A DNA stretch of 20,716 nucleotides from a virus (lineage: Duplodnaviria > Heunggongvirae > Uroviricota > Caudoviricetes): positions 1 to 20,716 of the IMG/VR virus record IMGVR_UViG_2541047849_000003. One strand, 5' to 3'. The notes beneath the pieces are model-generated. The model had not been told where the DNA came from. It ran no database searches and saw only the letters and a program-made list of their open reading frames with translations. A program made the position numbers and the translations under genes. Positions 13,428-16,818 of this stretch are shown here, piece by piece; within the stretch, counting starts at the first letter, position 1, and every line of letters begins with the position of its first letter.

Positions 13428-13444
13428 CTAAATGCCATGGATGG

Positions 13445-13633
13445 CTATTTCCCTAGCACATGAAACAATGTTTGCTTTAATTCCACCCATACAATTATGA
13501 CCACTATAGACAGACAAAAGAAACTGAATGCATTGGCATCACGATCGAAACCTTCTCCGGCACTAAATCCGTAAAAGGTCATAAAAAATATAAAAATTGC
13601 GCACTTTGCAACGTTTACAAATTTTTTCTTCAC
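13445..13633 (-). CDS. Hypothetical small membrane protein (Lys-rich N-terminus, two hydrophobic segments)
   Basis: GTG start at 13631-13633 preceded by AAGGAGG with a 5-nt spacer. The supplied track extends the same frame to an ATG at 13708 without a ribosome-binding site. Hydrophobic stretches CAIFIFFMTFYGF and FSFFCLSIVVIIVWV. Confidence 0.4.
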   Translation of the reverse strand: MKKKFVNVAKCAIFIFFMTFYGFSAGEGFDRDANAFSFFCLSIVVIIVWVELKQTLFHVLGK

Positions 13634-13696
13634 ACCAACCTCCTTAGTTTTGAGCAGGATACCAGATGATAATGTGTAGTTGGAGTAGCGCGGTTG

Positions 13697-13787
13697 TAAT
13701 GCAAGCATTTTGTTTTGGTTTTATGCTTGCTTGTATGTGTGTACAGTGTATATAATGCAAGCATGTATCACAACAAGGTGCTTGCAT
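13697..13787 (+). promoter_or_regulatory. Promoter (-35 TTGCTT 13727-13732, -10 TATAAT 13751-13756) embedded in four copies of an operator-like motif ATGCAAGCA(T) in alternating orientation
   Basis: Forward copies at 13699-13708 and 13755-13764; reverse-complement copies at 13723-13730 and 13779-13787. A perfect TATAAT lies 18 bp after a TTG-containing -35. AAGGTG ribosome-binding site 8 nt before the ATG at 13789. Confidence 0.4.
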
Positions 13788-13788
13788 T

Positions 13789-14781
13789 ATGACTGAAAAG
13801 AAAAGTGGCGAAGGGAAAGCTAAGGGCGGTATCGCTCGCGCAAAGTCGCTGACTAAAGAGCAGCGTTCTGAAATAGCAAAGAAAGCAGCGGCTGCAAGAT
13901 GGAAGGATAAACCATTAATTGCTACGCATAAGGGATCGTTCCAGCATGAATTCGGGATTGATGTTGAGTGCTATGTGTTAAATGATGATAACAAAACTGC
14001 CGTTATTAGCCAGAGAGGCATGGGAGAAGCGATTGGTCTTGGCGAAGGTGGCAGCAGGTTGCCAAAGTTTATTCAGGGGAAAACTATTTCTCAGTATATC
14101 GGGCATGAATTAAGGGCAAAACTTGAAAATCCTCTTATTTTTCAATACAAACAGGCGGGCACGAACACTCCAGCTAATCCTGTAATACATGGCTACGATG
14201 TAACAATATTAATTGATTTATGTCGAGCAATCTCTAATGCTAAAGCCGAAGGTAAGTTGCTTTCCAGTCAGGAAGGGATTGCTAAGCAAGCCAGAATCAT
14301 TATTGATGCATCAGCCAAGGCGGGCATTCAGGGGCTTGTTTATGCTTTGGCAGGGTATGACAGAACAAAAGAAGAGGTAATTCAAGCATATAAGCGATAT
14401 GTTGCTGAAGAGGCTCGTGAGTATGAAAGAGAGTTCACCCCTGAACTTTATGAGCATTGGTATCGTCTGTATGGTATAGACAAACCAGTTAGAGGGCGAC
14501 CATGGGCGTTTAAATATCTTACGATAGATCACATTTATTACCCATTAGCCAGAAGTGAAGGAAAGGTATTTAATTTAGCAAAAACGTCAAAAGAAGAAAA
14601 AGGCAGCAAAAACGATAAAATACACCAGTTTTTATCAGAGGTTGGAGTTAAGGCTCTTAGAACCCAAATAGGTAAGGTTACTGGTATTGCAATGGTTTCT
14701 GATACTCGAGAAGAGTATGAGAAATACATAGATGAAAAGGTTATTGGACAAAGAACCATAGACTTAAAAGATAAAGAATAA
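13789..14781 (+). CDS. Hypothetical accessory protein, probably P63C-domain family (phage regulatory or antirepressor-associated domain of unknown function)
   Basis: 330 aa. Basic N-terminal tail GGIARAKSLTKEQRSEIAKKAAAARW, then ...ECYVLNDDNKTAVISQRGMGEAIGLGEGGSRLPKF..., which matches my memory of the conserved P63C core. AT-rich codon usage unlike the flanking structural genes. Own promoter upstream and terminator downstream. Confidence 0.6.
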   Translation: MTEKKSGEGKAKGGIARAKSLTKEQRSEIAKKAAAARWKDKPLIATHKGSFQHEFGIDVECYVLNDDNKTAVISQRGMGEAIGLGEGGSRLPKFIQGKTISQYIGHELRAKLENPLIFQYKQAGTNTPANPVIHGYDVTILIDLCRAISNAKAEGKLLSSQEGIAKQARIIIDASAKAGIQGLVYALAGYDRTKEEVIQAYKRYVAEEAREYEREFTPELYEHWYRLYGIDKPVRGRPWAFKYLTIDHIYYPLARSEGKVFNLAKTSKEEKGSKNDKIHQFLSEVGVKALRTQIGKVTGIAMVSDTREEYEKYIDEKVIGQRTIDLKDKE

Positions 14782-14787
14782 GAAAAT

Positions 14788-14809
14788 CCCACCGTCAGGT
14801 GGGTTTTTT
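14788..14809. terminator. Rho-independent terminator between convergent genes, probably bidirectional
   Basis: CCCACC-GTCA-GGTGGG hairpin followed by TTTTTT and preceded by an A-rich run. Lies between the plus-strand gene ending at 14781 and the minus-strand ORF ending at 14835. Confidence 0.65.
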
Positions 14810-15183
14810 ATAAGGAGTAATCATGATTTACCCATCAAACAACCCACCAGTTTGCCTGATTGGATGCCAGCCTTGCAGTTTTTATGGAATTAATTATGCC
14901 ATGCTCAAGAGCCTTGTTAGCATCCAAAATGGTCGAGTCTGCTATCAGGGATGCCCACCTAATATGGGTTCCGATGTCGATATTGAACGTCTCAACGAAG
15001 CGATCAAGATCGTTATCGAGGCATTTCCCGTACTCTCTCAATCTGGCATGGTCGGCGGCTGGGGAGGCAAAGCACCATAATAGAGGATGTAACAGGAATC
15101 TTGATAATGGGTTTGCGAAACGTTCTGAGCCAGCCAGGAAAACGATATTAGCTATGGATTCAACATTGCTTATGTTGTGAGTT

Positions 15184-15187
15184 CTAA
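15184..15187. repeat. IS5 target-site duplication CTAA, left copy (right copy at 16383-16386)
   Basis: Identical 4-bp CTAA immediately flanks both inverted-repeat ends of the IS element. IS5 is known to duplicate a YTAR tetramer. Confidence 0.8.
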
Positions 15188-16382
15188 GGAAGGTGCGAAT
15201 AAGCGGGGAAATTCTTCTCGGCTGACTCAGTCATTTCATTTCTTCATGTTTGAGCCGATTTTTTCTCCCGTAAATGCCTTGAATCAGCCTATTTAGACCG
15301 TTTCTTCGCCATTTAAGGCGTTATCCCCAGTTTTTAGTGAGATCTCTCCCACTGACGTATCATTTGGTCCACCCGAAACAGGTTGGCCAGGGTGAATAAC
15401 ATCGCCAGTTGGTTATCGTTTTTCAGCAGCCCCTTGTATCTGGCTTTCACGAAGCCGAACTGCCGCTTGATGATGCGAAACGGGTGCTCTACCTTGGCAC
15501 GGATGCTGGCTTTCATGTATTCGATGTTGATGGCCGTTTTGTTCTTGCGCGGATGCTGCTTCAAGGTTTTTACCTTGCCGGGACGCTCGGCGATCAGCCA
15601 GTCCACATCCACCTCGGCCAGCTCCTCGCGCTGTGGCGCTCCTTGGTAGCCGGCATCGGCTGAGACAAATTGCTCCTCTCCATGAAGCAGATTACCCAGC
15701 TGATTGAGGTCATGCTCGTTGGCCGCGGTGGTGACTAGGCTGTGGGTCAGGCCACTCTTGGCATCGACACCAATGTGGGCCTTCATGCCAAAGTGCCACT
15801 GATTGCCTTTCTTGGTCTGATGCATCTCCGGATCGCGTTGCTGCTCTTTGTTCTTGGTAGAGCTGGGTGCCTCAATGATGGTGGCATCCACCAAAGTGCC
15901 TTGGGTCATCATGACGCCTGCTTCGGCCAGCCAGCGATTGATGGTCTTGAACAATTGACGGGCCAGTTGATGCTGCTCGAGCAGGTGGCGGAAATTCATG
16001 ATGGTGGTGCGATCCGGCAGGGCGCTATCCAGGGATAATCGGGCAAACAGGCGCATGGAGGCGATTTCGTACAGGGCATCTTCCATGGCACCGTCGCTCA
16101 GGTTGTACCAATGCTGCATGCAGTGAATACGCAGCATGGTCTCCAGCGGATAGGGCCGTCGGCCATTGCCCGCCTTGGGATAAAACGGCTCGATGACAGC
16201 GGTCATATTCTGCCATGGCAGAATCTGCTCCATGCGGGAGAGGAAAATCTCTTTTCGGGTCTGACGGCGCTTAGTGCTGAATTCACTATCGGCGAAGGTG
16301 AGTTGATGGCTCATGATGTCCCTCTGGGATGCGCTCCGGATGAATATGATGATCTCATATCAGGAACTTGTTCGCACCTTCC
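15188..16382 (-). mobile_element. Insertion sequence IS5, complete (1195 bp)
   Basis: Left end GGAAGGTGCGAATAAG at 15188 and right end CTTGTTCGCACCTTCC at 16367-16382 form the terminal inverted repeats with one mismatch. Length is 1195 bp. Internal sequence recognised as IS5. Confidence 0.95.
15334..16314 (-). CDS. insH: IS5 transposase InsH
   Basis: 326-aa [38 protein letters not shown]..., recognised as IS5 transposase. Confidence 0.95.
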
Positions 16383-16569
16383 CTAACGGTAACAGGGAGT
16401 GACTTAAGAAAGTTATACGCAGTAAAGCCAGCGGCAGTTTCCCCTCCCTGACTTGATATATGGATATTTAATTCAGTTGCGCCTTGAGATAATGCGGTGA
16501 GACAGTGGTTCTGAAGTTGCCCAACAGTGGCAGTGTTAACGGGGCATAAGAAATGAATTGTGTGCAGCA

Positions 16570-16818
16570 TTATTTTTCATCCTTACCATACATGGTCTTT
16601 AGCGTCTCAAGCAGCGCCTCTTTGAATTTGTCAGCTTCTTGCTGAGCAAATGACTCAACTGACTTTGGCGACCTATCTTCATCAATCGCGGCTTGCAAAA
16701 TCATGACGATCTCGGAGTTAACAGAGCGACCATTTTTTGATGCTCTGACAGCAAGAGCCTCGCGTAAAGATTCAGGGATTCTTACCGTAGTTGGAGAAAT
16801 TGACACACCCTTTGCCAT
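16570..16818 (-). CDS. mnt: Ribbon-helix-helix repressor, P22 Mnt-like
   Basis: 82 aa against 83 in P22 Mnt. Contains the RHH signature NGRSVNSEI. Transcribed divergently from the arc-like gene. AAAGGTG ribosome-binding site. Confidence 0.8.
   Translation of the reverse strand: MAKGVSISPTTVRIPESLREALAVRASKNGRSVNSEIVMILQAAIDEDRSPKSVESFAQQEADKFKEALLETLKTMYGKDEK

Follow-up and report, generated by a model that had tools for sequence, protein, structure and literature searches.

The DNA analysed here, a stretch of 20,716 nucleotides (nt) from the virus record IMGVR_UViG_2541047849_000003 that we call the window and to which all coordinates refer, carries the remnant of a P22-like prophage of Escherichia coli. 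Our results suggest that the interval between gp16, the last ejection-protein gene of this prophage, and mnt, which encodes an Arc/Mnt ribbon-helix-helix repressor, is a cargo hotspot with three slots, each holding an independent single-gene unit for which we propose a function of its own. We give this reading a probability of about 0.6. In the window, slot A contains the gene of a 62-amino acid (aa) membrane protein, slot B that of a 330-aa P63C-family protein, and slot C a ClpP-like gene split by an insertion sequence (IS) that we take to be IS5. The accessory site itself is already known, as are lysogen-expressed morons at the sieA/immI locus as a general kind. What is new is a conserved element of four boxes at the promoter of P63C genes, and truncated ClpP as solitary prophage cargo.

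An earlier note on this DNA had described the interval as one AT-rich candidate exclusion or defence module of three genes. The three open reading frames (ORFs) were found where it had placed them, between gp16 (11553-13427) and mnt (16570-16818), as follows.

13445-13633, minus: slot A cargo, 62-aa protein with two predicted transmembrane helices (hydropathy, phrog_21338)
13631-13900: conserved control block of about 270 bp, nearly invariant in five aligned E. coli P22-like prophages
13789-14781, plus: slot B cargo, 330-aa P63C-family protein (Pfam, phrog_2384)
14788-14803: intrinsic terminator for both directions, where the P63C and ClpP-like genes converge; G+C-rich hairpin followed by a T-run, scored on both strands
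14835-15187, minus: ClpP-like gene, 3' part, codons 62-178 and stop
15188-16382, minus: IS5 insertion, 1195 bp
15334-16314, minus: IS5 transposase ORF
16387-16570, minus: ClpP-like gene, 5' part, codons 1-61, its ATG sharing one base, 16570, with the stop codon of mnt
16570-16818, minus: mnt, first gene of the mnt-ClpP-like operon (Pfam, PHROG)

The interval occupies the sieA position of P22, as had been proposed: P22 sieA lies between gene 16 and mnt/gene 9 and is transcribed leftward from its own promoter (PMC10883804), and the sieA leader is common to both. The three genes are absent from P22 and BTP1 and are therefore dispensable for virions, and those of the cassette have expression signals of their own or are coupled to mnt; on both points the earlier description holds.

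Independent assortment of the three slots

Comparison of the gene content at the gp16-mnt junction across P22-like prophages revealed that each slot is filled independently. Slot A, directly after gp16 on the minus strand, is occupied by SieA, by the 62-aa protein, by a one-helix coiled-coil protein, by a protein with a hydrophobic signal-peptide-like N-terminus, or by a protein without a predicted membrane helix. On the plus strand, slot B may carry one of at least three P63C alleles; elsewhere it contains a Panacea-domain protein and its 161-aa partner, an S24 peptidase together with P22AR_C and ORF6N proteins, or still other genes. Slot C, after mnt, contains the ClpP-like gene, a YafO toxin-antitoxin pair, or nothing.

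The occupants occur in many combinations. In strain MS 21-1 the slot-A gene is another, P63C is the same and the ClpP-like gene is intact; strain elppa4 has sieA, P63C and mnt without the ClpP-like gene, and Panacea-type cargo accompanies the ClpP-like gene in UPEC129 and phage phiv205-1. P63C also occurs with mnt alone or with the YafO toxin-antitoxin pair, and at one locus the S24 peptidase, P22AR_C and ORF6N proteins stand together with the ClpP-like gene. Even loci that share the exact P63C allele of the window differ, some having the ClpP-like gene and others lacking it (loci L028-L030 of our survey). Since the slots are filled independently across P22-like prophages, we regard their contents as three single-gene units; a single three-gene system was rejected on this ground, and the description of the cassette as one module or gene combination did not stand.

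Two kinds of slot-B cargo deserve description in their own right. At loci L002 (3910-4840) and L003 (3701-4567) the gene of a Panacea-domain (antitoxin-type) protein precedes one whose product, of about 161 aa, has a weak NsnC match. This arrangement recurs in many E. coli prophages that bear the ClpP-like gene and looks like a PanA-type toxin-antitoxin pair; the Panacea gene of phiv205-1 seems to have been under-called as a 92-aa ORF. At locus L198 (2418-5119) an S24 repressor-like gene faces P22AR_C and ORF6N (antirepressor-type) genes, which looks like a second immunity-style unit beside immI.

The P63C-family protein of slot B

The slot-B protein matches Pfam P63C (PF10546) at residues 202-289 with 35.9 bits (gathering cut-off, 26.1) and phrog_2384 with an E value of 4.5e-103, and all 30 of the 30 aligned relatives match Pfam P63C. 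It comprises a basic two-helix N-terminus (residues 8-38), an alpha/beta domain (about 41-175) and the helical P63C domain (202-289). Residues 1-190 are covered by no Pfam model, isolated N-terminal pieces were likewise without match, and a sequence search of the protein against solved structures returned nothing. The AlphaFold model, built from a 63-sequence input, shows the same basic two-helix N-terminus, alpha/beta domain and helical C-domain, with a predicted local distance difference test score of 79 overall and mostly 80-96 in the N-domain.

The family is large, with 2,766 relatives at E≤1e-5 across beta- and gammaproteobacteria, and unusually conserved, identity being 60-70% among E. 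coli, Burkholderia, Ralstonia, Azotobacter and Laribacter. ORF23 of Salmonella phage ST104 belongs to a second subfamily, at about 33% identity. The first 38 codons or so of the gene (13789-13900, basic motif GKAKGGIARAKSLTKEQRSEIAKKAAAARW) are identical in DNA among E. coli alleles that share 52-54% identity in the whole protein, and beyond the joint at codon 38 the window allele is nearer to the Azotobacter homologue (66%) than to other E. coli alleles. The fixed N-terminus and divergent remainder point to allele swapping downstream of the N-terminus.

Homologues of P63C are often found close to repressor genes. ST104 ORF23 comes directly after cI and is co-oriented with it, filling the cI-to-N slot where BTP1 has bstA. 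The homologue in a Streptococcus satellite follows an XRE repressor, that of Gordonia phage Petra lies within an integrase-repressor cassette, and that of an Azotobacter prophage follows cI and a nuclease, beside a ParE/Phd pair. When we surveyed 150 proteins encoded up to two genes on either side of P63C homologues in 38 diverse viral loci, the S24 repressor peptidase was the commonest neighbour domain (9 of 150 neighbour proteins), and a CI-type repressor lay within two genes of the homologue in about a quarter of the loci. The P63C gene of the window sits at the sieA/immI locus, not downstream of a repressor.

The frequent proximity of CI-type repressors, together with the co-orientation of the ST104 gene with cI in the bstA slot, makes an anti-phage or interference role the most likely one for P63C. 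The protein would be a prophage-expressed, tightly autoregulated function of this kind, with BstA and its DNA self-recognition element as the closest analogue, a proposal that we make tentatively and by analogy. Literature searches on the P63C domain, prophage ClpP and the sieA hotspot found no functional study of either the P63C or the ClpP-like family.

A four-box element at the promoter of P63C genes

The control block upstream of the P63C gene has sharp mosaic joints, one falling exactly on the slot-A start codon and the other near codon 38 of P63C, and a segment of about 290 bp (13631-13918) is common to many of the 253 matching complete E. coli genomes. Within it the promoter region contains three exact 11-mer copies of TAATGCAAGCA within 93 bp and a degenerate fourth. 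They form four boxes.

13699-13708, plus: box 1, ATGCAAGCAT
13723-13732, minus: box 2, ATGCTTGCTT, an inverted copy that includes the -35-like TTGCTT (13727-13732)
13751-13764, plus: -10 TATAAT (13751-13756) fused to box 3, ATGCAAGCAT (13755-13764)
13778-13787, minus: box 4, GTGCTTGCAT, directly before the start codon region and overlapping it (ATG at 13789-13791)

The same plus-minus-plus-minus layout of GCAAGC/GCTTGC cores was recognized in 23 of 36 sources, with spacings of 22-24, 30-32 and 22-24 bp. In these 23 sources box 2 carries a -35-like TTGCAT and a TAnnAT hexamer is joined to box 3; box 4 reads GCTTGCATG in 17 of them, its ATG being the start codon, 6 nt after GCTTGC. The cores are enriched 17-fold in the 170 bp around the P63C start relative to the rest of the loci. 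The layout is conserved across beta- and gammaproteobacterial prophages, being kept in the Ralstonia, Azotobacter and Salmonella ST104 homologues at a protein identity of only 33-66%. In a complete 45.9-kb phage with a P63C gene, the box 9-mer was found solely at the P63C promoter. Some distant loci have other palindromes at the same place, and the Streptococcus homologue has neither the boxes nor the basic N-terminal helices.

We read the boxes as an operator because their sequence, and not just their pairing, is conserved and because they sit on promoter elements. They overlap the -35 element, the -10 and transcription start region (the predicted start falls inside box 3) and the start codon, an arrangement that would allow P63C to repress its own synthesis. 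The simplest candidate for the protein that binds the boxes is P63C itself, and the layout fits autoregulation by a sequence-specific DNA binder. Thus P63C probably binds the four ATGCAAGCAT-type boxes and represses its own promoter, the part of our proposal of which we are most confident. No description of the four-box element was found in the searchable literature.

The earlier note had credited the P63C gene with its own terminator and a strong promoter. The terminator at 14788-14803 was recovered; as for the promoter, TTGCTT, an 18-nt spacer and TATAAT are visible by eye, the -10 position being conserved in homologous loci, whereas a consensus promoter scan did not call it.

The boxes also bear on annotation. 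The annotated start of ST104 ORF23 (locus L007, 3917-4996) falls inside box 3, its first codons, MQAH, translating ATGCAAGCACAT; translation probably begins at the Met that directly follows box 4, 12 codons further on. Several relatives in the databases carry this spurious 'MQAH' extension too. An Rfam scan over the promoter yielded sub-threshold microRNA look-alikes only, which are due to the inverted repeats, and these were rejected.

The truncated ClpP-like gene of slot C

The earlier note had recognized a ClpP-fold gene co-transcribed with mnt. The fold is borne out by a Pfam CLP_protease match of 44.4 bits (gathering cut-off, 20.2) and the coupling by the overlap of the ATG with the mnt stop codon, but the gene is dead in the window, split after codon 61 by IS5. 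The inserted element is of about 1.2 kb, as expected of IS5, with terminal inverted repeats of about 16 bp (GGAAGGTGCGAA(T/C)AAG; the ends are GGAAGGTGCGAATAAG and CTTGTTCGCACCTTCC) and a 4-bp target duplication of the YTAR type, CTAA, at 15184-15187 and 16383-16386. Its presence explains thousands of E. coli matches to the window sequence. Excision in silico (16570..16387 joined to 15187..14835) restores a 178-aa ORF, and an IS-free gene of 178 aa occupies the same place, in the same layout, in E. coli MS 21-1.

Members of the ClpP-like family are 178-190 aa long and begin at the strand aligned with 'RVIFLTG' of E. coli ClpP, after the N-terminal axial loops; alignment thus places the loops that dock ClpX/ClpA outside these proteins. 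Ser72 and His95 are invariant in the family and the position of the catalytic Asp is Ser or Ala, so that the complete Ser-His-Asp triad of peptidase S14 is absent across it. A C-terminal NWWV motif is specific to the family. A query of mnt plus the ClpP-like gene matched 178 of 5,426 complete genomes, always in the chromosome; 78 of the 178 held most of the query and some mnt alone. At locus L188 (5583-6118) two tandem Arc/Mnt-type genes (84 and 85 aa) lie upstream of the ClpP-like gene, and two mnt-like matches were also seen at L115 and L116.

Outside P22-like prophages, relatives stand alone: of 43 loci, 37 have a downstream gene that runs on the opposite strand, and 20 have opposite-strand neighbours on both sides. 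The relatives lie between lysis and terminase genes, near N, or among tail-fibre/invertase genes. This distribution of truncated ClpP among prophages was not found described in the searchable literature.

The best solved relative is 9UXT, ClpP1 of Pseudomonas plecoglossicida (PpClpP1), with an E value of 1.6e-35 and a full-length alignment. That protein is a truncated ClpP that forms a wide-pored 14-mer and, owing to the truncation, does not bind ClpX; its low activity depends on Ser and His, and with canonical ClpP it forms a more active mixed complex (PMC12900304). ClpP2 of P. aeruginosa, an atypical subunit that tunes ClpXP, is a second precedent (PMC13056064). By analogy, the N-terminally truncated paralogue from the prophage may join the host ClpP tetradecamer and alter proteolysis by ClpXP/ClpAP, a proposal to which we give even odds. 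Such an effect could serve defence, lysogeny control or host physiology. Translational coupling to mnt means that slot C would be expressed in lysogens.

A separate observation concerns PpClpP1, which has been studied as a chromosomal paralogue and drug target (PMC12900304). It belongs to the truncated family found as Enterobacterales prophage cargo, and may therefore be of prophage origin; its relatives in viral contigs reach only 42-50% identity. We also considered a head-maturation protease as the identity of the ClpP-like gene. The NCBIfam model NF045542 (Clp_rel_HeadMat) gave 49.3 bits (cut-off, 120), the gene is coupled to mnt and not beside portal or capsid genes, and phages without it are viable; this candidate was rejected.

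The membrane protein of slot A

The slot-A ORF starts with GTG, 5 nt after AGGAGG, and its 62-aa product matches phrog_21338 with an E value of 5.8e-45. As the earlier note had claimed, this is a small two-helix membrane protein: hydropathy reveals two hydrophobic segments, residues 5-23 and 32-61. Over the 34 bp that precede the start codon, the sequence shares 97% identity with the leader of P22 sieA, and in strain elppa4 the same slot is occupied by SieA itself. The 62-aa protein shows no similarity to SieA in BLASTP (E 0.29 and 10); homology to SieA types A, B and C was not found, and the SieA motif FxRYPxEAxxFNK is absent from its sequence. Slot A would be transcribed leftward from behind the sieA leader, and its product may, like SieA, counter incoming phage DNA at the inner membrane; we think this less likely than not.

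The prophage remnant and its other genes

The window prophage is a defective, non-inducible deletion remnant in which slot C has been destroyed by IS5; the deletions are apparent from the gene content of positions 1-4955. The genes of the window outside the cassette and mnt are as follows.

1-1284, minus: host pectinesterase-like gene
1419-2685: lambda-type integrase and excisionase (int, xis)
3496-4282: NinF-like ORF and Rha/KilAC-type protein
4353-13427: virion genes
11553-13427: gp16, last ejection-protein gene
17082-17285, plus: 67-aa ORF between arc and ant
17280-17347, minus: sar antisense RNA
18293-20716, plus: tailspike

Two small minus-strand ORFs that come next after int and xis have no family match. 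The virion genes begin with a scaffold gene cut down to 200 aa, about half of it being gone, followed by the coat protein and the remaining genes up to gp16. Pfam and PHROG annotation of the window revealed no immC, replication, lysis, terminase or portal genes in the prophage, and the element therefore cannot be an active phage. To the right of mnt lie arc, the 67-aa Cys-rich ORF, sar, ant and then the tailspike gene.

The sar RNA at the arc-ant junction is full-length (Rfam RF00262, 95.6 bits; cut-off, 43), and the immI regulatory circuit therefore looks intact. The 67-aa ORF has two CxxC pairs and matches phrog_7150 with an E value of 3.4e-50; P22 has no gene at this place, and the ORF is found in many, not all, related prophages. 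PADLOC v2 gave no match to it at E≤1. The tailspike extends past the end of the window; its head-binding domain is of the P22 type, and behind it come a pectate-lyase-like domain and a weak endosialidase-type match. Prophages with the identical P63C allele carry different tailspikes, K1 endosialidase types included.

The foreign AT-rich composition that had been ascribed to the cassette is only partly its own. The compositional break is real, with a G+C content of 0.41 at 13430-15187 (the cassette without the IS) compared with 0.498 for the virion genes (4353-13427), but it spans the whole right arm of the prophage. Since the G+C content is also low in immI (0.429) and in the tailspike gene (0.403), it is not a mark of the cassette alone. 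IS5 itself has 0.536, and the mean of the full 13430-16570 range is 0.46.

Weighing the alternatives

Several points count against the reading of the interval as a hotspot of three independent units with proposed functions. A role in exclusion or defence is plausible, being suggested by position and context. The searches with hidden Markov models that the earlier note had suggested matched P63C and CLP_protease in Pfam, whereas PADLOC v2 matched none of the three cassette proteins, 62-aa protein and ClpP-like protein included, at E≤1; the statement that no described defence system fits has thus held up. Nor did PADLOC name a system among 63 P63C relatives and the 150 neighbours, and known defence genes are rare among those neighbours. 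The consensus scan called neither promoter, so that expression in the lysogen is something that we infer. In the mRNA leader, boxes 3 and 4 could pair with each other instead, an option to which modelling lends no support, the predicted fold being no better than that of shuffled sequence (z = -1.27). The exact P63C allele adjoins the ClpP-like gene in 8 of the 8 contexts shown, which leaves room for some functional link. Finally, with the prophage defective and the ClpP-like gene broken, the locus as it stands may do little.

A further-reaching version of the proposal would make the P63C family widespread single-gene prophage anti-phage proteins that act like BstA. The nearly universal four-box ATGCAAGCAT element would then be both an operator that holds a dangerous protein under strict autoregulation and a DNA 'self' mark that spares carrier phages, and the truncated ClpPs, independently, would be plug-in subunits that rewire host ClpXP. 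We consider this extension unlikely as a whole.

An alternative for slot B alone is that P63C belongs with the Ant/Bro/ORF6N proteins as an antirepressor or a regulator of the lytic switch, serving phage development or prophage cross-talk and not defence. P63C was reportedly first defined, by Iyer, Koonin and Aravind in 2002, among phage regulators of just this kind. The gene adjoins immI, elsewhere its slot holds P22AR_C and ORF6N with an S24 repressor, and the Foldseek matches, weak as they are (E 0.0075-0.3), are mostly to Bro-N, antirepressor and KilA-N proteins. However, comparison of the P63C profile by hhalign was negative both with a Bro-N protein and with the P22-type Ant of the window, and the boxes lie solely at the gene's own promoter and nowhere else in the phage genome. 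Moreover, the ST104 homologue is the next gene after a CI-type repressor, in the same orientation, and a repressor is the commonest near neighbour elsewhere, which makes this an unlikely place for an antirepressor. We therefore regard an antirepressor role as having a low probability, and an interference function of P63C as preferable.

The ClpP-like protein might likewise belong to the lysogeny control of immI; made together with Mnt, it would clear away Ant that has leaked through, or some other regulator of the phage, rather than acting on foreign phages or host physiology. Its gene directly follows mnt in every P22-like prophage that carries it, over mnt alleles that are only 36-100% identical, and it replaces orf59a of the P22 mnt operon, before the mnt terminator. 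Against this stand relatives at 51-58% identity that are solitary in prophages with neither mnt nor ant nearby, and P22 and many of its relatives do without the gene. A dedicated part in immI control is improbable on this evidence, and we keep to cargo that would act on host ClpP rings.

The whole interval could also be inert debris of a decaying prophage, without current function. The loss of immC, replication, lysis, terminase and portal genes and of half of the scaffold gene, together with the splitting of one of three genes by IS5, is what decay would produce. On the other hand, the P63C ORF is intact and its exact protein sequence recurs in public assemblies (880 index blocks), the control block hardly varies, and sar, mnt, arc and ant are all intact. 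Debris is thus a rather improbable account of an interval that we interpret as a hotspot of separate cargo units.

The proposal that the three genes form one cooperating defence system, in which for example P63C would sense phage DNA and the ClpP-like protease would be the effector, draws on the 8 contexts above and on MS 21-1, in all of which the exact P63C allele stands beside an intact ClpP-like gene, and on the convergence of the two genes on a common terminator. It is very improbable in view of the same allele without the ClpP-like gene, of other P63C alleles beside mnt alone or sieA, and of ClpP-like genes accompanied by Panacea, ORF6N or other cargo. In addition, the slot-A gene varies freely, and outside P22-like phages the two families are solitary, in unrelated positions. 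That the boxes are iteron- or centromere-like sites and P63C a replication or partition factor we consider highly improbable.

Significance and comparison with known systems

The sieA/immI interval of P22-like prophages, seen as a three-slot exchange point for cargo that lysogens would express, is a compact place in which to seek new exclusion or defence genes. Both the P63C and the truncated ClpP families are common and unstudied. The former gains a concrete prediction in the conserved 10-bp box, present in four copies with a fixed layout. The latter ties a recently solved 'atypical ClpP' structure to prophage cargo, and phages may in this way tune the regulated proteolysis of their hosts. 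Should neither family affect phage infection, annotations would still be corrected, namely 'ATP-dependent Clp protease proteolytic subunit', 'head maturation protease' and the start of ST104 ORF23.

By sequence, the three proteins fall into neither the SieA nor the BstA family nor any family in PADLOC, and each is best compared with a different known system. The 62-aa protein resembles P22 SieA (Leavitt et al. 2024, PMC10883804) in being a membrane protein encoded in the same slot directly after gene 16, on the same strand and behind the same 34-bp leader, and other prophages put sieA in this very slot beside a P63C gene. However, SieA has about 160 aa, compared with 62 aa and two helices here, and sequence similarity is absent.

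P63C shares with the Bro-N/KilA-N/Ant regulators an alpha/beta N-domain followed by a helical C-domain, a likeness reflected in the weak Foldseek matches, and ORF6N and P22AR_C proteins use the same accessory slot. It differs from them in that its residues 1-190 fit no Pfam model and in the negative hhalign comparisons. The nearer parallel is BstA, a prophage abortive-infection protein with a DNA element, aba (Owen et al., bioRxiv 10.1101/2020.07.13.199331). Both are single prophage proteins of some 310-330 aa in which a putative DNA-binding domain at the N-terminus is joined to a second domain, both use the cI-to-N slot (ST104 ORF23 and BTP1 bstA), and both have a short conserved DNA element across the 5' end of the gene. 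The proteins themselves are different: 0 of 63 P63C members match PADLOC BstA at E≤10, whereas BTP1 BstA as a control gave 1.9e-124, and hhalign of P63C with BstA stayed below threshold (13.5% probability over 41 residues). The elements differ as well, since aba is a 63-bp element with CCCGCC direct repeats, specific to each BstA, whereas the P63C boxes are four inverted 10-mers, nearly alike in all lineages.

The ClpP-like family has the ClpP fold in common with the ClpP-related head-maturation proteases, and its best PHROG matches are annotated as such, but P22-like heads use no head-maturation protease of this kind. Its closest counterpart is PpClpP1 (9UXT). The third triad position is Pro in PpClpP1 and Ser or Ala in the ClpP-like family, and the latter is prophage cargo, coupled to mnt or lying amid opposite-strand genes. 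The two nevertheless share the same N-terminal truncation, which removes the ClpX-docking loops, and in both Ser and His are kept and Asp is absent.

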